From assembly GCA_963804645.1 (NCBI GenBank), contig CAWDRG010000005.1:96001-160000 (forward strand): 64,000 nt of DNA. Reading direction: 5' to 3'. The translations under genes and the position numbers were made by a program. Source of the stretch: an uncultured Bacillota bacterium. Its GTDB lineage: Bacteria > Sysuimicrobiota > Sysuimicrobiia > Sysuimicrobiales > Segetimicrobiaceae. The notes under the pieces are model-generated. The model was not told the DNA's origin and ran no database searches. It saw only the letters and a program-made list of their open reading frames with translations. Below, in pieces: positions 12,094 to 33,506 of the stretch (positions within the stretch are counted from its first letter, which is position 1; every line of letters begins with the position of its first letter).

Positions 12094-12963
12094 TCAGACC
12101 GGCATCGTGCGCTTGGTGTGCAACCGTCCGATCTCGGCCGCCTTCGGGTCATACGCGCGGCAGAATTTCAGCCCGCGGTCGATCTGCGCCTTGATGTCCT
12201 CCGGGGTCACAATCGTCAGAAACGAGATTCCGGCGTCCGCGCACGCCTTCCAGACGCGGTCGAGATCAGCCTGCAGGTCGGGAGGCAGGGGCACCGGCCG
12301 CTTTCGGTATCCCTGCTCCATCGACTGGTCGCCGGCCCCCCACTCGCCAAACGCGATCCCGGGCACCCGCGCGCTCACTTCACAGTTCACGAGCGCGCGC
12401 GCATTCTCCATCTTGATTCCCAGCAGGAGCTCCCCGTTCGGGTTGAGCGGCCACACGTCGGCCTTCTCCATATACTCGTCCTCGGAGATGCCCCACACCT
12501 TCGAGGCCATCCCCTGCCCCCCATGGCCCCGCCGGCCCTTGCCGAGTCCGCGGCCGACCCCGAGCGATTGAAATACGTATCGCGCTGATTCCACGTAGGC
12601 GCGGACCGCCCCCGGCGTCTCCGCGTGACAGAGGATCAATCCATGAACGCCCTGGGCGAGCGCCTGTTTGATCATCCACGCGTTGCTGTACACGACGTAC
12701 TCATCGATGCCGTCGAACGGCAATTCCGCGATCACCGCGGGGGTGCGGTGGCCGCTGCGCGTCGGCCCGCCGTCGATCAGTCCCTGCATGAATGTCCCGA
12801 GTGCGGTCATGTCGAACGGTCCGTGCTCGGAGTCAATGCGGATGTAGTCCGCCCACGTCTTGGCCATGGCAACGCCGCTCTCGTGGGTCAGCACGTGCGT
12901 ACTTGTGTAGTAGACCGGCTGCCCCCGCTCCAGCAGCTCGATCGCCCGGTTTACCCGCGCCAT
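12094..12963 (-). CDS. HpcH/HpaI (GarL-like) class II pyruvate aldolase family protein
   Basis: YIRIDSEHGP (DxEH), GIKMENARAL, WGAGDQS metal-binding region; GGAGG RBS. Confidence 0.8.
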   Translation of the reverse strand: MARVNRAIELLERGQPVYYTSTHVLTHESGVAMAKTWADYIRIDSEHGPFDMTALGTFMQGLIDGGPTRSGHRTPAVIAELPFDGIDEYVVYSNAWMIKQALAQGVHGLILCHAETPGAVRAYVESARYVFQSLGVGRGLGKGRRGHGGQGMASKVWGISEDEYMEKADVWPLNPNGELLLGIKMENARALVNCEVSARVPGIAFGEWGAGDQSMEQGYRKRPVPLPPDLQADLDRVWKACADAGISFLTIVTPEDIKAQIDRGLKFCRAYDPKAAEIGRLHTKRTMPV

Positions 12964-12982: not shown

Positions 12983-14194
12983 TCAGGACGGTCGACGCCC
13001 GTTCCGCGATGCCGATGCCGCCCGCCGCGCGATTCCTGGGGCGGCTCTCACGACGGCGCGCTCCAGTCGATCGCGGATGATCGCGGCGGACAACTCGCCC
13101 GGCCGGACCCTGCCGTCGCAGGCGATGACCTCGTCGTAGAACGGCGCCCGGAAGCCGGGTTCCACGGTCCCGACCACGGCCACCACGCGGCGCCCCAAGC
13201 GCTTGGCGACCGCCCCCGCGTGAGCCGGCCCCTTCGACAGCAGGGTCGTGCGGTCGAGACGGCCTTCCCCGATGATTACGACGTCGTGACGTTTGATCCA
13301 TGCCGCGAGGCCGATCTCCCGCTCAACCAGCTCGGCGCCGTGCACCAGCGTCGCCCCCAGAAATCCCAACAGCCCCGCACCCAACCCGCCCGCCGCCCCG
13401 GCCAGCGGAACGTCGACGCGGCGACCGGTCTGTCGGCGTAACACCCGCGCGAGGTTGGCAAATCCCGCGTCGAGGTAGGCGATCTCCGAGACGCTGGCAC
13501 CCTTCTGCGGCCCGAATGAGCGCGCCTGCCCCCGCGGGCCCAGGAGCGGGATATCCGCATCCGACGCGACGACGATCTCCGGGACGCCCTGGGACACCTT
13601 GAGGCGATCCAGGCGCACCCCGGCGATGTCGACCAAACTCAGCGCGTTGAACCCGGGAGTCCCGATGGGGCGCAGTACGGCACCGCGCCGGTCAAGGAAC
13701 TCAACGCCCAGGGCCTGCGCCATGCCGATCCCCATGTCGCTGACGATGGACCCGCCCAGCCCGACGATGACGCGGCGGTACCCGCGGGCGACCGCGGCGA
13801 GAATGAGCTCGCCCACGCCGTAGGACGTCGCCACCATCGTCTGCCGTTCGTGGGGGCGCAGGAGCCTCCACCCGGCCGCCTCGGAGATCTCGATGACGGC
13901 AGCCGCCGGCGTGCCGTCGAGCAGCCCGAGGCGCGCACGCCGCGGGCGAAACAGCGGATCGTGCGCGGACACCTCCACCACGCGTCCGCCCCGCGCGGAC
14001 ACCAGGACCTCGATCGTCCCATCGCCGCCGTCGGCCATGGGTGCGATTTCGATCGCGAACCGCTCGCTGCCGCGGCGGAGCCCGCGTGCGATGCTTCTGG
14101 ACGCCTCGCCCGGCGAGAGGTACCCTTTGTGGCCGCAGCTCGCGATCAGCGCGCGCACGCTGCCCCCGGGCGTGCGCGCAGCCCCTACCGGCAT
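12983..14194 (-). CDS. Glycerate kinase (GlxK/GarK class), divergent
   Basis: PMADGGDGT, VGLGGS, FGPQKGA, GAAGGLG, GEGRLD; N-terminal IASCGHKG replaces usual IAPDSFKG. Confidence 0.9.
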   Translation of the reverse strand: MPVGAARTPGGSVRALIASCGHKGYLSPGEASRSIARGLRRGSERFAIEIAPMADGGDGTIEVLVSARGGRVVEVSAHDPLFRPRRARLGLLDGTPAAAVIEISEAAGWRLLRPHERQTMVATSYGVGELILAAVARGYRRVIVGLGGSIVSDMGIGMAQALGVEFLDRRGAVLRPIGTPGFNALSLVDIAGVRLDRLKVSQGVPEIVVASDADIPLLGPRGQARSFGPQKGASVSEIAYLDAGFANLARVLRRQTGRRVDVPLAGAAGGLGAGLLGFLGATLVHGAELVEREIGLAAWIKRHDVVIIGEGRLDRTTLLSKGPAHAGAVAKRLGRRVVAVVGTVEPGFRAPFYDEVIACDGRVRPGELSAAIIRDRLERAVVRAAPGIARRAASASRNGRRPS

Positions 14195-14230: not shown

Positions 14231-15295
14231 TTACTCCGCATCGAGCCGGGCCAGACGCGAGACGATATCTACCACGCGGGACCCGTACCCCCATTCGTTG
14301 TCGTACCACAGCACGAGCTTGAGCTGCGCGTCTCCGTGCACCATCGTCCACCGGTGGTCGACCACCGCGGAGTGCTCAACCCCGGCAAAATCGACGGACA
14401 CCAGCGCCTGGTAGTTGTTCGCGATGACGGGGTACGCCTGCGTACGCTCCGCCGCCTCGAACACGCCGATCACGTCGTCTCGGGACGCGTCCCGAGACAG
14501 TTTCACCGTGAGATCGGCGGACGACACGATCGTGGTCGGCACCCGATACGACAGCGACACAAACTTGCGGTCGATGCCGGGCAGCACCTTGGCCGACGCC
14601 CGCAGGCATGAGGTCGTCTTTGGGATCAGCGACAGCGTGCTCGCGCGCCCCAGCGCATAAGCGGAGTGGATGCTGCCGGGGTCCGAAAACGAAAACGACG
14701 GGCCGTCCAGCAGCCGCTGGTAGCTGAGCCACGGGTGCAGAGTGGTCAGGGAGCCGTACTCGATCCCGAAGTGACGTTCCAACAGCAGCGCCACAGGCGC
14801 GAATGCCGCCGCATCGCAGATGCTGGCCGAGAGCACGAAATCGCCGCGCCGGATGTCGGTCTCGTTCACCCCGAAGATGACAAACCGGTCGACGAACTGT
14901 TCGTCTGGCGCGTTGGTCACGACGCAGTGCCGCACGCCCTGATCAGCCAGCCGGCGCAGCGCGGGCAGGTTGTGCTCGATCCCGGACGCGTCGATCACCA
15001 GATCGACGGCGTCGGCCTTCCACGGCACCGCGTCAATCTCGTGGTGTCGTGATACGCGGATCGAAGGCGCGCGCTCGACCGCGAGCGTATCGGGCCCTTC
15101 TACCCGTACGTCGCGCGCGAGCCGCCCGTATGTCGAGTCGTACTTCAACAGGTAGGCGACGTTGCCGAGATCCGGGTTGATGTCATTGACGGCCACCAGA
15201 TCGAACACGTCCCGCTCGAGGTTGATCCGGGCGATCGCGCGTCCGATCCGGCCGAACCCGTTAATGCCGATGCGCATCCGCATGCCGGCGGCCAC
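14231..15295 (-). CDS. Divergent GAPDH/erythrose-4-phosphate dehydrogenase family protein
   Basis: GINGFGRIGR, YLLKYDSTYG, YRVPT, WYDNEWGY; active site SASICDAAA instead of SNASCTTNC. Confidence 0.9.
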   Translation of the reverse strand: MAAGMRMRIGINGFGRIGRAIARINLERDVFDLVAVNDINPDLGNVAYLLKYDSTYGRLARDVRVEGPDTLAVERAPSIRVSRHHEIDAVPWKADAVDLVIDASGIEHNLPALRRLADQGVRHCVVTNAPDEQFVDRFVIFGVNETDIRRGDFVLSASICDAAAFAPVALLLERHFGIEYGSLTTLHPWLSYQRLLDGPSFSFSDPGSIHSAYALGRASTLSLIPKTTSCLRASAKVLPGIDRKFVSLSYRVPTTIVSSADLTVKLSRDASRDDVIGVFEAAERTQAYPVIANNYQALVSVDFAGVEHSAVVDHRWTMVHGDAQLKLVLWYDNEWGYGSRVVDIVSRLARLDAE

Positions 15296-15298
15296 GGC

Positions 15299-16288
15299 CT
15301 ACTCACCACCCTCGGGCCCATAGTCGACCACCCCGTACAGGGGCGGCTCGCCGCGGGCGGCCCGCGCGACGTTCGCCGCCACGTGCTGCACCATCCGAAA
15401 CCGCGATTCGTGGCTCGGCCCGGCGTGCGGCGACAGCGCCACGTTGTCGAGCGCGAGCAGCGGAGAGTCCCGCCGAGGAGGCTCCGCCTCAAACACGTCG
15501 AGCCCGGCACCTCGCAACCGACGCTCGGTGAGCGCCTCGTACAGCGCCTCTTCGTCGACGATGCCTCCGCGCGCTGCATTGATCAAGACGGCCGTCGGTT
15601 TCATCCACCCGAGCGAGTCGCGGTTGATCATGTGCCGCGTCCGGGACGTCAGCGGAACATGGAGGGTCAGCACATCGGACGCCCGCACCAGGTGCTCGAA
15701 CGGGCACGCCTCAAGCGCGTGCGCCCGCACGAACTCGGGATCCGCCGGGCGAATGTCGTCGTACAGGACGCGCATCCCAAATGCGCTGGCGCGGACCGCG
15801 ACCGCACGCCCGACATGCCCGAGCCCCACGATCCCCATCGTCTTGTCGAGGAGTTCAATGTTCTCGTGCTTCCGATTGACCCACGATCCGTCGACGACGG
15901 TCGCATGATGAAACCGCTGGTGACGAAACAGTGTGAGTGCCAGCAAAAATACGTGCTCCGCCACAGAGACGGCGTTCGACCCCCCGTTGTTGGCGACGAT
16001 CACCCCGTGACGCGCCGCACGCGCAAGGTCGATCTGTTCGTACCCGGCAATCGGCAGCTGAAACAGTTTGAGACGAGGCGCGCGCCGGTATTGGTCGTCC
16101 GTCAGGTCGACGCGCGAGATAACGCAGTCCGCGCGAGCTAACAACTCGGAAAGATTGTCCGGAGGCGAGGTAAAATCCACCCGCAGCCACTCGCACCGCG
16201 GGTCACCCAATTCACGCAACTGATTCTTGAAGCTGTCATAGACATCGGCCGACGTCAGGACGACAAACGCGTCGTCACGCGCCGGCAT
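15299..16288 (-). CDS. D-isomer-specific 2-hydroxyacid dehydrogenase (SerA/PdxB/glycerate dehydrogenase family)
   Basis: NAVSVAEH, GIVGLGHVG, INAARGG, DVFEAEP, SPHAG (Arg/Glu/His triad). Confidence 0.93.
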   Translation of the reverse strand: MPARDDAFVVLTSADVYDSFKNQLRELGDPRCEWLRVDFTSPPDNLSELLARADCVISRVDLTDDQYRRAPRLKLFQLPIAGYEQIDLARAARHGVIVANNGGSNAVSVAEHVFLLALTLFRHQRFHHATVVDGSWVNRKHENIELLDKTMGIVGLGHVGRAVAVRASAFGMRVLYDDIRPADPEFVRAHALEACPFEHLVRASDVLTLHVPLTSRTRHMINRDSLGWMKPTAVLINAARGGIVDEEALYEALTERRLRGAGLDVFEAEPPRRDSPLLALDNVALSPHAGPSHESRFRMVQHVAANVARAARGEPPLYGVVDYGPEGGE

Positions 16289-17018
16289 GGTTTTTCGTGG
16301 AAGCCGCGCGCCCGCTCAGGATCGTCTCGATGAACAGCATCTGGTGCGGGTCGTCGACGTCGATCGCTCGCTCTGGCGGCACGATGTACGGGATCGGCCG
16401 CCGCCCGATCAAATTGGTCTGCGTTTTGAGCTCGCCGACCGTGTTGAAAATGATCGCAAAGTTGGCGCGGTACATTCGACGATGGTCGTTGTGCCGCGTC
16501 GACCGCCGGTAGTCTTCGGGGAACACTGGGTCGAGGCGGTTATCCTCCGCAATGTTCAGCGCCAGCTGGATAGGGTACTCGTAACTGGTCACGCTGACCA
16601 CGGGCGTCGCCCCGCCCTGCTCTCGGAACAGTTGATACGCTCCCTGGATGTCCTGCGCCGTCCGCAACGGGCACGTCGGAAACAAGACCCCAAGTACCGT
16701 GTCGTCGGACCACTCAAGCGCGCGGATCATCTCCTGGATGATCTCGATGATATACGTGGTGTCGCTCGCCAACTCGGGGGGCCGCAGATAGGTGTCGGCA
16801 CCGTACGAACGAGCCACGGCGAGTATCTCGTCATCCTCGGAATTCACGATGACTCCTTCGAACACACCGCTTTGCAGGGCCGTCTCGATAGTGTACGCGA
16901 TCAGGGGCTTGCCGTTGACCAAGATCAGGTTCTTGTGGGGGACCCGCTTCGACCCGCGTCTGGCGGGGATGAACGCGTGGACAGCCGCCTTCCCACCGCT
17001 GTCCCCACGAACCCCCAT
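16275..17018 (-). CDS. Acylneuraminate/CMP-ulosonate cytidylyltransferase (NeuA/KdsB family)
   Basis: FIPARRGSKRVPHKN, GKPLIAYTI, RPPELASD, PTCPLR, AIDVDD; AGGAGG upstream of ATG 17018. Confidence 0.9.
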   Translation of the reverse strand: MGVRGDSGGKAAVHAFIPARRGSKRVPHKNLILVNGKPLIAYTIETALQSGVFEGVIVNSEDDEILAVARSYGADTYLRPPELASDTTYIIEIIQEMIRALEWSDDTVLGVLFPTCPLRTAQDIQGAYQLFREQGGATPVVSVTSYEYPIQLALNIAEDNRLDPVFPEDYRRSTRHNDHRRMYRANFAIIFNTVGELKTQTNLIGRRPIPYIVPPERAIDVDDPHQMLFIETILSGRAASTKNHAGA

Positions 17019-17244
17019 CCTCGTCCTCCTGACGCGGTGTTCCTCCACTGACCCTCACGGGGTTATCGGACTCACCAACGGCGCCGCGCGCGCGCCGATC
17101 AGTCGCGGTGCCCGATATTCGACAGATAGTAAGGAAGCCCCTCCGCGCACGCCGCAGCGCGCGGTGCATCGGGGTCGACGACGACGCGACGCGCGGCAAC
17201 CGTGCATCCCGAGCGACGCGCGTATACCTGTGCACGCTGCTCGA

Positions 17245-26188: not shown

Positions 26189-26935
26189 TCAGTCATGCGC
26201 GGGCAAATACTGGGCGTTGAGCGCGGCGACATCCGGATGCGCCTCGAGAAACGCGATGATCTCGTCGGTCGTCACGAGACGCCCCGGCTGGTACAGCGCC
26301 TCGAAGATCCGCCGAAGCAGCAGATAGTCCTCCCAGTAGTCGAGCGTCCAGCGGTACCGCCAGAACCCGCGTGCGGGGTCTTCCACGTTGTAGACGCGCA
26401 GGCCGGCCTCCCAGAAGTACGGGATCGTATGCTCCCGCTGCGGCGGGGTCGTGGCGTGCCGCCACGCCTCTGCGAGGCCCTCCGCAGACAGCACGTCACA
26501 ATCGAGCCCGTCGGGAAACGTCAGCGGGTGGCGATTCGTGACGAGGTCGTACTGCGAAGGGTGCGCCAGAAAAAACCTGACCATTCGGTCGATGAGCCGC
26601 GGGTCGGCCAACGGGCAGTCGGCGGTAATGCGCACGACCACGTCGAGCCGAAACTGCTCTGCCGCCCGGTGATAGCGGTCGAGCACGTCGAGCTCGCTTC
26701 CGCGAAACACCGGGATGCCCCGCGCGTCGCACAGCGCGGCGATGGGGTCGTCCGCCGGCTCCTCTGACGTCGCGACGAGCGCCGCCGTCAACGACGTCGC
26801 GTACGCGAGCCGCTCCATCAGATGGTCGAGCATCGGCTTGCCGGCCGCCTCCAGCAGCACCTTCCCGGGCAGCCGCGTCGAGCGCATGCGCGCCTGGACA
26901 ACCGCGCCCACGCGCGCGGGGGCTCCCTCAGGCAC
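26189..26935 (-). CDS. SpsF-like cytidylyltransferase family protein
   Basis: VQARMRSTRLPGKVL, FRGSELDVLDRY, VRITADCP, REHTIPY, RWTLDYWED. Confidence 0.9.
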   Translation of the reverse strand: MPEGAPARVGAVVQARMRSTRLPGKVLLEAAGKPMLDHLMERLAYATSLTAALVATSEEPADDPIAALCDARGIPVFRGSELDVLDRYHRAAEQFRLDVVVRITADCPLADPRLIDRMVRFFLAHPSQYDLVTNRHPLTFPDGLDCDVLSAEGLAEAWRHATTPPQREHTIPYFWEAGLRVYNVEDPARGFWRYRWTLDYWEDYLLLRRIFEALYQPGRLVTTDEIIAFLEAHPDVAALNAQYLPAHD

Positions 26936-28319
26936 GACAGCAGTCGAGCTGGGCCGCGTCCGGGTGCAGCCGCCCACAGCGGGCCTGCTGGCACCGGTTG
27001 AAGGGTCGGAACACCGGCTTGGGCGCCTCCCCCTCGAATGACTCGTCCACGGTCTCAGTCTCGATCGCCCGCCGGACCTTGCGCATCCCGGCGACGATTG
27101 CATCGAGCGTGCGGTCGAGCTCCTCATCTCCGTGCGAGTAGGTGATCGTCGTCCACGGGATCAGCACCCCGTGGGAAATGACCTCCTCGTGAAACGACGC
27201 GCTCAACGCCGGCCAACCGCGGCCGTCGCCTCGAGTGCAGATGATCTGGGGATTGCAGTCGAACCCGATGATCTGCACGTAGGGCGAGACCCGCTCACGC
27301 TCCGCCGCGCTGCGAATCCCCTCGACGAGCCGCTTCCCGAAACCCCATACGTGTGCGCTGATGTCCACCCGCTGGCACTCCTCCAGGGTGGCGCGGCACG
27401 CCGCGAGGCCGGTCGTTTCGGATCCGTGCGTCTGCGACAGGAGAAACACCCGCTCCTTGTTGTGCCGCAGTCCGCCCGCTTCCATGATGTCACGCTTCCC
27501 TGCCAGCAGCGAGAACGAATAGCCGTTGGAGATCGCCTTTCCGTAGGTCGCCAAATCCGGATAGACGCCCCACAGATGGTGGGCGCCCCGAATGTCGAAC
27601 TTCATCCCGCTGATCATCTCGTCGAAGATGAGCACCGTGCCCTCTTGAGTGGCGAGCGCGCGAAGCTCCTGCAAAAAGTTGTGCTGTGGCGCGTCGTTCT
27701 TGACGGGCTCGAGAATGATGGCGGCGATCTGGCCGGGGTATTGGTCAAACAGCGCGCGGAGGCTCCCCAGGTCGTTGTACCGGAACGGCAACGTCAGTCG
27801 CGACACCTCTTCCGGGACCCCGGCGTTCATGGTGGTCGTCCCGATGAACCAGTCGTGGATGCTGTAGAACGGATGATCCGCGCACTGGGCGATGTATTTT
27901 CGCCCCGTGTAGGCCCGGGCGAGCTTGACCGCCGCGGTCGTGACGTCCGACCCGTTCTTGCCGAACTTCACCATCTCGGCAACCGGCAGCAGGTCCACGA
28001 GATACTCCGCCAGCTCGTACTCAAGAATGCCCGGCCGGGTGAAGTTGGTCCCGAGGTCGATCTGGCGTTTCACCGCCTCGTTCACGGCGGGATAGCTGTG
28101 CCCGAGGATGATGACGCGGTTGCCCATCCCCCAGTCGATATACCGGTTGCCGTCGACGTCCCAGGTGTACGCGCCCAGGGCGCGCGCCATCACCTTGGGG
28201 CCGCGCCACGGAAACTGGTCCTCGCCCTTGCTGTACGTGTGGCTGCCACCCGGAATGAGCCGGTGTAGCTTCTCATTCATCTCGTAGCTTTGAGTGAAGT
28301 TGTCGATCGGGCGCGACAC
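26928..28319 (-). CDS. Class III PLP aminotransferase (glutamate-1-semialdehyde aminomutase-like)
   Basis: PGGSHTYSKG, WDVDGNRYID, FGKNGSD, FDEMISG, YGKAISNG; GGAGGT RBS before GTG 28319. Confidence 0.92.
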   Translation of the reverse strand: MSRPIDNFTQSYEMNEKLHRLIPGGSHTYSKGEDQFPWRGPKVMARALGAYTWDVDGNRYIDWGMGNRVIILGHSYPAVNEAVKRQIDLGTNFTRPGILEYELAEYLVDLLPVAEMVKFGKNGSDVTTAAVKLARAYTGRKYIAQCADHPFYSIHDWFIGTTTMNAGVPEEVSRLTLPFRYNDLGSLRALFDQYPGQIAAIILEPVKNDAPQHNFLQELRALATQEGTVLIFDEMISGMKFDIRGAHHLWGVYPDLATYGKAISNGYSFSLLAGKRDIMEAGGLRHNKERVFLLSQTHGSETTGLAACRATLEECQRVDISAHVWGFGKRLVEGIRSAAERERVSPYVQIIGFDCNPQIICTRGDGRGWPALSASFHEEVISHGVLIPWTTITYSHGDEELDRTLDAIVAGMRKVRRAIETETVDESFEGEAPKPVFRPFNRCQQARCGRLHPDAAQLDCCRA

Positions 28320-28368
28320 GACGCCCACCTCCCTACCGCTCAGGATCGGTCACGAACACGACCGGCGC

Positions 28369-29052
28369 TCACGCCGTGCGGCTCATCAGAAACGCCGCCA
28401 GGTCGAAGTCAAACTGCGTCGCCACGTGCACGCTGCGCTCCTCAGGCGTCTCGTACACGGCGAGGCGTTCGCCAAAGAAGTTCCGGCGCTCGCACAGCGG
28501 GGCGGCGCGGCCGATCTTGATCGATCCGTTCGGCCGCTGGACCGGCGGGAGGAGCGGCCGCTCCAGCATGAACGCGTCCCCGAAGTACATCCGGAACCAG
28601 CCCCCATCTTCGCGCAGCGCCCAGTGAAAATAGTGCGGGTCGACCGGTGTCACCGACACGAGGAAATCGGCGCCGGACTCCACAAATCGCTCCCACGAGC
28701 CCCGCACGTCCCCTGCGCTTCGCAGGGGCGACGACGGCTGGAGACAGACCACCGCGTCGTAGCGGTCCCCGGCCGCCCGCCGTGCCTCAAAGACGTCGAT
28801 GCACACGTCGGTCGAAGAGACCAGATCGTCCGCGAGCGCCGCGGCACGAATGTGCACGTCCGCGCCGCAGTCGCGCGCGATGCGCGCGATCTCCTCGTCC
28901 TCCGTCGAGACGACCACCCGGTCAAACACGTGGCTGGCCGCGGCGGCGTCGATCGAGTAGGCGAGCATCGGCTTGCCTGCCAGCGGGCGAATGTTTTTCA
29001 GCGGAAGCCGCTTCGAACCCCGGCGTGCCGGCACGACGCACAGCGGCCGCAT
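28369..29052 (-). CDS. Acylneuraminate cytidylyltransferase, likely CMP-pseudaminic acid synthetase (PseF-like)
   Basis: VPARRGSKRLPLKNI, VSTED, LQPSSPLR, PNGSI; inside the pse block. Confidence 0.88.
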   Translation of the reverse strand: MRPLCVVPARRGSKRLPLKNIRPLAGKPMLAYSIDAAAASHVFDRVVVSTEDEEIARIARDCGADVHIRAAALADDLVSSTDVCIDVFEARRAAGDRYDAVVCLQPSSPLRSAGDVRGSWERFVESGADFLVSVTPVDPHYFHWALREDGGWFRMYFGDAFMLERPLLPPVQRPNGSIKIGRAAPLCERRNFFGERLAVYETPEERSVHVATQFDFDLAAFLMSRTA

Positions 29053-32279: not shown

Positions 32280-33506
32280 CTACGGACATCCGGGCGGCTC
32301 CTCGCGCGCCACGGCGTACTCGGGCGCGACATAGCCCACCTTCTGGCGCCGACCGTCCCACCGGACATCCGGAATCAAGACCTCGCGCTTCATCTCGATC
32401 CGGTCCCGATATCGCAAGAGATCGCGCAGCATGATCCCAAGCTCTGTCTCGACGTCGTGCGTCGGCCGGTAGCCCAGATCAAGCAGATGCTGATGATCCG
32501 GCCGGTAGAAGTGCTCCTCGAGCTCCTTGCGCGGATTCTCGAGGTTGCGGACCTCGACGGACAGCCCGAGCCCGCCCGCCACCGTCTTGACCTTCGCGGC
32601 GAGTTCCGTGACGTCGTACACTTCCTCAAACTGGTTGAACACCCGGTACTCGCCCGGCTGCGGCGGATGCTCCAGCGCGAGCGTCAAGCACTGCATCGAA
32701 TCCCGCAGGGGGAGGAACCCGCGCTTCTGGTGCCCCTTCCCGAACGGCGTCAGCGGGTGTCCGATCACGGCCTGGCAGGCGAACCGGTTGACGGCCGTGC
32801 CGAAGGCCTGATCGAAATCGAGCCGGGTCAGCAGCGGACCGCCGTCGCCCATCGCATCGATGCGCGACCCGAACACAACGCCCTGCATGACATCGGTGGC
32901 GCAGATCCCCCAAATCCGGCACGCGAACATCACGTTGTTGGACCCCGCGACCTTGCTCCAATGGTACCAGGAGCCGGCCTGGCGGGGAAACGGCAGCCGG
33001 TCGCGGCGGCCCCGGAACTCGATCTCGAAAAACCCTTCGGGGATCTCGACGTTCGGCGTGCCGTACTCGCCCATGGTCCCGAGCTTGACGAGATGGGCGT
33101 CGGGGCAGACGTCGCGCATCGCAAACAGCAGATGAAAGGTCGTCGTGATGTTATTCGTCTGCACGAACACCGCGTGGGCGGCATCGATCATCGAGTACGG
33201 CGCCGACGGACACTCCCCGAGCTGCACGACCGCCTCTGGCCGGAACTCGCGGAAGAGCCGTTCCACGAACCCGTACTCCCGGAGGTCTCCCTCCCAGAAC
33301 CGAACCTCCCGTCCGAACCGCTCCCGGAAGGCGGCGAGCCGCTCGGTCATCGGCGGGGTGGGAATCGCGCTGTGGCTTCCCATCTCTTCCACCCATTGGC
33401 GCCGGAAAAACACGTCGGCGCCGGCGACCTCGTGGCCCCGCGCGGTCAAGTGCTGCGCGAGCGGCCACCCCAGATAGCCGTCCATGCCGGCGATCAGAAT
33501 CCGCAT
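32280..33506 (-). CDS. sqdB: UDP-sulfoquinovose synthase homologue (SqdB/SQD1/Agl3 family)
   Basis: GMDGYLGWP, PSAPYSM, HLVKLGTMGEYGTPN, IPEGF, GSWYHWSK, TDVMQGVV, NPRKELEEH. Confidence 0.85.
   Translation of the reverse strand: MRILIAGMDGYLGWPLAQHLTARGHEVAGADVFFRRQWVEEMGSHSAIPTPPMTERLAAFRERFGREVRFWEGDLREYGFVERLFREFRPEAVVQLGECPSAPYSMIDAAHAVFVQTNNITTTFHLLFAMRDVCPDAHLVKLGTMGEYGTPNVEIPEGFFEIEFRGRRDRLPFPRQAGSWYHWSKVAGSNNVMFACRIWGICATDVMQGVVFGSRIDAMGDGGPLLTRLDFDQAFGTAVNRFACQAVIGHPLTPFGKGHQKRGFLPLRDSMQCLTLALEHPPQPGEYRVFNQFEEVYDVTELAAKVKTVAGGLGLSVEVRNLENPRKELEEHFYRPDHQHLLDLGYRPTHDVETELGIMLRDLLRYRDRIEMKREVLIPDVRWDGRRQKVGYVAPEYAVAREEPPGCP

Follow-up and report, generated by a model that had tools for sequence, protein, structure and literature searches.

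The phosphate sites of GAPDH rank among the most conserved in enzymology. Epd, a GAPDH paralogue, is paired in one pathway with PdxB, a D-2-hydroxyacid dehydrogenase, and primary work on Epd reportedly found its reaction to be hydrolytic. In E. coli, the garL-garR-garK genes serve glucarate catabolism. According to the available part of PMC12041015, the Ps site of type I GAPDH consists of T179, T181 and R231, the replacement of T179 by Met in Epd appears important for the larger substrate, and Epd forms an acid bisphosphate. The "new Pi" ligands, as given in an excerpt of PMC2662861, are the Ser and the Thr that flank the catalytic Cys, together with the Thr-Gly of the 206-210 loop. A different precedent comes from Caulobacter, where CpgD, a CTP:phosphoglycerate cytidylyltransferase, makes CDP-glycerate (PMC12275187, in the part available).

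The gene that we call GAPL lies in the window (the whole stretch of 64,000 nucleotides that was analysed), inside a minus-strand surface-glycan cluster at about 1.6-47 kb. The cluster encodes PseB, PseC, a NeuB-type synthase, PseG/H, a CDP-glucose 4,6-dehydratase, a sulfoquinovose synthase and many glycosyltransferases, and it carries three genes of the CMP-transferase family. Its immediate block runs CMP-transferase, 2-hydroxyacid dehydrogenase, GAPL, glycerate kinase and HpcH-like protein (Table 1). Elsewhere in the cluster, two more PF02348 cytidylyltransferases are found around a PRK06209 class III aminotransferase at 26189-29052 (-), a block that looks pseudaminic-acid-like, and the UDP-sulfoquinovose synthase at 32280-33506 (-) scores 528 bits, just below the cutoff of 575. 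A previous sequence-only reading had seen in this gene a GAPDH paralogue with a rewired active site; the remodelling of the GAPDH is borne out, but the conserved glycan module around it had gone unseen.

Table 1. Positions of GAPL, its active-site segments and its immediate neighbours in the window
Feature	Position	Strand	Evidence
NeuA/PseF-type CMP-ulosonate cytidylyltransferase	16276..17048	-	PF02348; TIGR03584 161.8 bits, below its cutoff
D-2-hydroxyacid dehydrogenase with Arg/Glu/His triad	15299..16288	-	PF02826/PF00389
GAPL, putative GAPDH-fold aldehyde dehydrogenase, Cys-Asp subfamily	14231..15295	-	Pfam, AlphaFold
S-I-C160-D-A-A-A, residues 158-164: nucleophile kept, S148>I, T150>D	14804..14824	-	Alignments
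TTLH187PWLSYQ (TTLHPW = 184-189): catalytic His kept, T179>Leu190, T/D181>Tyr192	14717..14746	-	Alignments; Ps residues as given in part of PMC12041015
K226-T-T228-S229 loop (KTTSCLRA 226-233; = 206-210 Pi loop): Lys gained, T208 kept, G209>Ser	14597..14620	-	Alignments; loop as given in part of PMC2662861
Arg251 (=R231), anion-binding residue, kept	14543..14545	-	120/120
Glycerate kinase, GarK/GlxK family	12983..14194	-	PF02595 E 1e-93; TIGR00045 over cutoff
Divergent HpcH/HpaI-family class II aldolase-like protein	12094..12963	-	Weak PF03328, E 3e-4

The GAPL reading frame is uninterrupted and encodes 354 residues from GTG, or 350 from an ATG at 15283. Both Pfam domains, Gp_dh_N and Gp_dh_C, are over cutoff, the NAD-binding Gly motif is retained with Asp38, and the AlphaFold model built from 120 sequences (pLDDT 91.6, with low confidence at 193-211) matches GAPDHs at TM 0.85-0.89 (Foldseek E 1e-40, TM 0.88). 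Identity to type I GAPDH is 32-35%. No solved structure of a subfamily member was among the best 60 matches listed, and an ESM Atlas search with GAPL gave Gp_dh clusters only. Every NCBIfam GAPDH/Epd cutoff lies above the GAPL score: 243.3 bits against 367 for TIGR01534 (GAPDH-I), 202 against 530 and 539 for the Epd models TIGR01532 and PRK13535, and 213 against 450 for NF033735 (ArsJ-associated GAPDH). With that last score and with glycan genes as its neighbours, we rejected an ArsJ-type identity. A protein identical to GAPL is on record (P0002, with 7 member sequences) and another metagenome contig, L157, carries a 98%-identical copy of the cluster, which rules out chance or sequencing error behind the GAPL motifs. 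GAPL is under purifying selection, with a dN/dS of 0.08 against L157 and 0.12 against L152, and of 0.27 and 0.29 for two more distant pairs in which synonymous sites are near saturation. Together with the invariant residues described below, these ratios rule out a pseudogene or drift.

Site roles were transferred to GAPL from GAPDH residue numbering by alignment. GAPL shares with type I GAPDH the fold, the Gly-rich NAD motif and the equivalents of Cys149, His176, Arg231 and Asn313; the catalytic pair, C160 and H187, is present in 120 of 120 sequences (the query and 119 homologues at 50-83% identity, with P0002 left out as identical), just as had been claimed for the nucleophilic Cys and the His of TTLHPW. 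The two reported motif replacements, SICDAAA for ASCTTNC and KTTSCLRA for TTTGAAKA, are equally sound: aligned on solved GAPDHs, SICDAAA falls on NASCTTNC, TTLHPW on TVH[AS] and PKTTSCLRA on P[TS][ST]TGAAKA, and both replacements are family-wide in the 120. Invariant throughout are C160, D161, H187, L190, Q193, R217, K226, R251 and N333; position 159 is Ile in 110, Thr in 9 and Val in 1, never Ser, and position 229 is Ser in 105 and Thr in 15, never Gly. The second motif can be called rewired for its invariant K226, but not for its Cys, which is variable (Ala in 62, Cys in 47). A second set, made of the query and 76 loci from a DNA pattern that fixes residues 184-193 only, gave I159 in 76 of 77 and both D161 and K226 in all 77. 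The same columns in 78 canonical GAPDHs hold S in 78, T in 78, T in 77, T in 53 or S in 25, and G in 77 (Ser at 159, Thr at 161, Thr or Ser at 226), and neither Asp161 nor Lys226 occurs in any of the 78.

Both anion sites of type I GAPDH are thus altered in GAPL. At the Pi site (S148/T150/T208/G209), I159, D161 and S229 stand in place of three residues, as the proposed loss of phosphate binding had it, but the ligand T208 is kept as T228 in 118 of 120 sequences. At the Ps site (T179, T/D181, R231), R251 is kept and L190 and Y192 replace the other two, changes that belong on the list of active-site differences and were missing from the earlier one. Set against type I GAPDH, the full list reads S148>I, T150>D, T179>L, T/D181>Y, T206>K (the Lys gained in this subfamily) and G209>S/T. 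Epd resembles GAPL in being a GAPDH paralogue with T179 turned hydrophobic (Met in Epd, Leu in GAPL, apparently by convergence) and G209 replaced; it differs in keeping ASCTTNC, in sharing 32% identity with GAPL and in the one Epd sequence sitting on the canonical side of the tree. That tree and the others were quick ML trees, the final one built without five long-branch rows (P0410, P0335, P0345, P0326 and L140). It sets 31 subfamily rows on one side of a branch with support 94 and 35 canonical rows, the Epd included, beyond another with support 99; with all rows the supports were 72 and 99. The alignment and modelling against GapA and Epd that had been suggested as a check thus confirm the GAPDH fold and, as judged from the sequences, place the GAPL subfamily on a branch apart from both. 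A small T-C-T-G-N sister group lies between the subfamily and the canonical rows; its members (P0332, P0360, P0378 and P0406) also carry HP[VL]L motifs, keep T150 and have lost T179, and may represent an intermediate that is maybe still phosphorylating.

The organism's own genome (96.8% complete) holds an intact canonical gap on contig C22. GAPL is therefore a paralogue and not the glycolytic enzyme; a sole glycolytic gap role is ruled out by the C22 copy, and so is the one genomic circumstance, GAPL as the only gap gene, that had been named as refuting the earlier proposal. A canonical gap over cutoff is also present in all three Bacteroidota genomes that carry GAPL, and the genomic setting differs too, a glycan locus for GAPL and gap-pgk for type I GAPDH. 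A second canonical gap in the same genome (G000:C9:1368296-1369325) is split by a frameshift near 1369027, which could reflect misassembly or a genuine lesion, and is followed by a PGK-like ORF that we read as PGK. One might still suppose that GAPL is a drifted GAPDH of the ordinary phosphorylating kind, or a drifted Epd, in which the new Lys stands in for the lost Pi ligands while the HAD encoded beside many GAPL genes hydrolyses the acyl phosphate. The retained fold, Cys, His, R231, T208 and N313 are consistent with this, as is the sister group, which is fused to the same HAD and retains T-C-T. We consider it improbable nonetheless, given that GAPL scores 243 bits where GAPDH-I requires 367 and 202 bits where Epd requires 530, that a branch of support 99 separates it from GapA/Epd, that an invariant Asp occupies a phosphate-ligand position and that a canonical gap is present.

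The gene neighbourhoods of the subfamily tell us more about what GAPL might do. We fetched 119 metagenome loci and 6 from a viral collection, and clustered the 83 of at least 1.5 kb; with three genome regions added and five near-duplicates removed, 81 loci remained, 35 of them with at least 1 kb upstream and at least 3.5 kb downstream. Partners were counted within 4 kb on the same strand, using module HMMs built from the same loci except L214-L216, and the family counts are to be taken as descriptive. Among the 35 loci, HAD is found in 29, a CMP-transferase in 28, a D-2-hydroxyacid dehydrogenase in 27, HpcH in 19, FAH in 8 (both in 1, either in 26) and glycerate kinase in 3; all four classes occur together in 23, no module partner in 3, and no aldolase or FAH within 4 kb in 9. 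The corresponding counts for 56 canonical gap loci are 0 for HAD, CMP-transferase, HpcH and FAH, and 1 for the dehydrogenase. This canonical control came from 80 loci at 30-39% identity (77 with a usable ORF), found by a genome-contig search dominated by a generic motif. An independent check is given by L214-L216, from the three Bacteroidota genomes: all four classes are present in each, in the order GAPL-CT-HpcH-2HADH, with HAD close by and with an MptE-like transferase, which we take to be Maf-type. Across the 81 loci HpcH occurs alone in 26, FAH alone in 17 and both in 1, and this near mutual exclusion suggests that HpcH and FAH do the same step. The module's dehydrogenase copies keep Arg and His, and the D[VT]...EP motif, in 38 of 38. 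The partner cytidylyltransferases fall into several distinct clades, all NeuA/KdsB-like; because these clades differ and some loci have other partners, more than one product may be made across the GAPL loci. Such other partners include a ketol-acid reductoisomerase-family gene beside GAPL and HAD, in place of the 2-hydroxyacid dehydrogenase (L117:9149-10144 and L161:11314-12276), and a DHQ-synthase-family gene that GAPL directly follows, with an AMP-binding enzyme and an SDR near and without module partners (L099:9460-10587 and L118:10697-11833).

We think that the gene set around GAPL probably makes an acidic cell-surface sugar of an unusual kind. Like the CMP-Kdo and CMP-nonulosonate pathways (KdsA-KdsC-KdsB, NeuB-NeuA), it combines a HAD phosphatase with a NeuA/KdsB-type cytidylyltransferase in a surface-glycan locus, but in place of a PEP-dependent synthase it has a class II pyruvate aldolase or FAH and two dehydrogenases. 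On balance we lean towards GAPL oxidising a short aldose, or its phosphate, in a non-phosphorylating reaction; the resulting aldonate would feed a CMP-activated 2-ulosonic acid, with both substrate and product inferred. GAPL would then be a dedicated, non-glycolytic, NAD+-dependent aldehyde dehydrogenase. Cys160 would form a thiohemiacetal with the aldehyde and pass a hydride to NAD+, and the thioester would be hydrolysed rather than phosphorolysed because the Pi site is gone, Asp161 possibly activating the water. The loss of the Pi-site hydroxyls and the Asp at the T150 position support such a non-phosphorylating reaction, much as the sequence-only reading had proposed, as far as residues can indicate a mechanism. 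What counts against hydrolysis is the portrayal of the GAPDH superfamily, in the available part of PMC12041015, as reversible or reductive enzymes only.

That reading had also offered a non-phosphorylated substrate, for which the altered Pi and Ps sites do speak, but R231 and T208 persist, a Lys that never varies has been gained, and HAD is the commonest partner. The HAD points to a phosphorylated substrate or product, unless it acts first, since in 47 of 50 HAD-containing loci it adjoins GAPL, and it is fused to GAPL in P0282 (Cys-Asp type) and P0378 (sister type). The substrate would most likely be the phosphate of a short aldose, with Arg251 and Lys226 as its anchors. Erythrose-4-phosphate is our tentative guess, favoured because of the T179>L parallel with Epd and the PdxB-like partner; glyceraldehyde-3-phosphate or free glyceraldehyde come next as guesses, a C3 substrate being favoured by the glycerate kinase in the window and by the CpgD-like loci. 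The module would then work like Epd plus PdxB, likewise a GAPDH paralogue paired in a pathway with a D-2-hydroxyacid dehydrogenase, but extended by partners that Epd does not have (HAD, aldolase or FAH, CMP-transferase). HAD would release the free aldonate, the D-2-hydroxyacid dehydrogenase would oxidise it to a 2-oxo acid, pyruvate-type enolate chemistry by the HpcH aldolase (or by FAH in its stead) would give a 2-ulosonic or ulosaric acid, and the NeuA-type enzyme would make the CMP glycoside of that acid for the surface glycan of the cluster.

It is also conceivable that GAPL acts late and on an unphosphorylated substrate: aldolase and HAD would make a 3-deoxy-ulosonate, its terminal alcohol would become an aldehyde, and GAPL would turn this into a carboxylate, giving an ulosaric acid such as 3-deoxy-heptulosarate, with Lys226 and Arg251 binding the carboxylate. 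The alteration of both the Pi and the Ps site would fit, the step count suits aldolase/FAH, HAD, two dehydrogenases and CMP-transferase, and for L145, a typical module aldolase, the best PDB matches are aldolases for 2-keto-3-deoxy sugars and for glucarate/galactarate. Yet the partner dehydrogenase carries the 2-hydroxyacid triad, which suits oxidation alpha to a carboxylate and not of a terminal alcohol, and GAPL with HAD is also found without aldolase or CMP-transferase, so we regard this order of events as unlikely. Distinctly unlikely, in our view, is that the Cys thioester is passed to an acceptor (an amine, CoA or a carrier protein) as a glyceroyl or tetronoyl group, or that the enzyme runs reductively and supplies an aldehyde for the aldolase. 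Other members of the superfamily do interconvert activated acids and aldehydes (PMC12041015, in the part available), and the extra loop modelled with low confidence at 193-211 might, with the invariant aromatics W189 and Y192, form an acceptor site. But GAPL has no carrier protein, CoA ligase or acyl kinase as a recurrent neighbour, AMP-binding enzymes are confined to the clusters of L099, L118 and L146, and the loss of the Pi site disfavours an acyl-phosphate substrate.

The window carries a variant of the module, and this bears on how far the hydrolytic aldonate route can be followed there. None of three module HAD clades gave a tblastn match in the window, and of 13 HAD_2 matches in the genome 0 are inside it; a generic phosphatase or the glycerate kinase would have to cover this step. 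Where the other module aldolases have Arg, the window aldolase has Glu, and both this and the missing module HAD count against one tidy pathway. It had no PDB sequence match, and its single-sequence fold reached pLDDT 35; the relative in L106 matches PF03328 at E 1e-8. All three aligned members of this divergent HpcH-like clade have the Glu at the Arg column and a Lys two residues before the metal-binding Glu, and the protein co-occurs with glycerate kinase in L106, L143 and L157. The glycerate kinase has no other homologue in the genome, is present in 4 of the 81 GAPL loci and is part of the module in the window's variant only. An HpcH-family aldolase with a GarK-family glycerate kinase recalls garL-garR-garK, but that system is catabolic and has no CMP-transferase or GAPDH-fold gene.

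The kinase beside GAPL might instead suggest that the module's output is glycerate, turned next into an activated phosphoglycerate (CDP-glycerate, the product of CpgD) with which the glycan is decorated. The CpgD precedent (PMC12275187, in part) offers a likeness, in that a small acid destined for the cell envelope is activated by a cytidylyl group, and a second module type, in which GAPL accompanies a MobA-like NTP transferase (L100, L115, L133, L142 and L161), in L115 and L142 with a CDP-alcohol phosphotransferase in addition, is the minority that it may fit. (L100, L133 and L142 also encode a small protein with a weak DUF6206 match.) But CpgD is described in the available part of PMC12275187 as like inositol-1-phosphate cytidylyltransferase, a different family from the window's NeuA/KdsB-type (PF02348) enzyme. 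Moreover, the aldolase and the 2-hydroxyacid dehydrogenase would be left unexplained, and glycolysis already supplies 2- and 3-phosphoglycerate. The best PDB matches of the transferase that adjoins GAPL are NeuA/CMP-Neu5Ac synthetases; it is NeuA-type and not of the IMPCT/MobA-like kind of a CpgD-type pathway. CDP-glycerate is thereby rejected for the window, and as an account of the module we hold it to be very improbable.

Two homologue searches returned 1,454 and 1,293 clusters at strict E-values, with the Cys-Asp motif checked in part of them only; the best 150 representatives at 50% identity comprised 91 with Cys-Asp, 50 with Cys-Thr and 9 with other motifs. A profile search at E<=1e-92, a threshold that misses divergent members, found the subfamily in 3 of 1,556 genomes, all among 251 Bacteroidota, and in 0 of five other phylum samples (251, 301, 401, 201 and 151), and an exact DNA pattern found it in 1 of 94 genomes of the organism's phylum, its own. 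Plasmid and phage searches gave no subfamily member (best 37% and 33% identity, respectively). Six viral-collection contigs (L204-L209) carry the subfamily within glycan clusters and may be host DNA or proviral flanks. A blastn search of E. coli genomes with L140, a distant query and hence a weak test, had no match. A search for longer fusions gave three proteins at 32-36% identity without a partner domain; one of them, P0422, was inspected and is a canonical-type GAPDH tandem. Among the carriers found in the homologue searches, none was a named, cultured organism whose glycan structure is known. An RNA look-up listed no holder of the gene, an outcome without bearing on expression. Nor did we find a description of the module in the mostly open-access literature searched, although glycan-locus gene tables could mention the genes; PMC5989533 and PMC12388113, in the parts available, are apparently unrelated.

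GAPL represents a real and conserved GAPDH subfamily in a recurring sugar-acid module, one that is apparently uncharacterised and whose genes are currently annotated GAPDH or "aldehyde dehydrogenase". A large branch whose phosphate sites have been rebuilt in the same manner throughout would add a new type of reaction to the GAPDH fold. We find it tempting, though it is a long shot, to go further and see in GAPL a GAPDH fold turned hydrolytic by its own general base, the Asp beside the Cys, within a five-gene, PEP-independent pathway that would yield a 3-deoxy-ulosaric acid in CMP-activated form, for example Dha (3-deoxy-lyxo-heptulosarate). A 2012 review (PMC3355719), in the part available, lists the activated form of Dha as unidentified, and the part of PMC12168206 available holds nothing on how Dha is made. 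The module, small and soluble, can be rebuilt in vitro and could bring to light an undescribed way in which prokaryotes from marine, freshwater and soil settings make a CMP-activated acidic sugar for their surface glycans; it is perhaps also a model for Dha synthesis.
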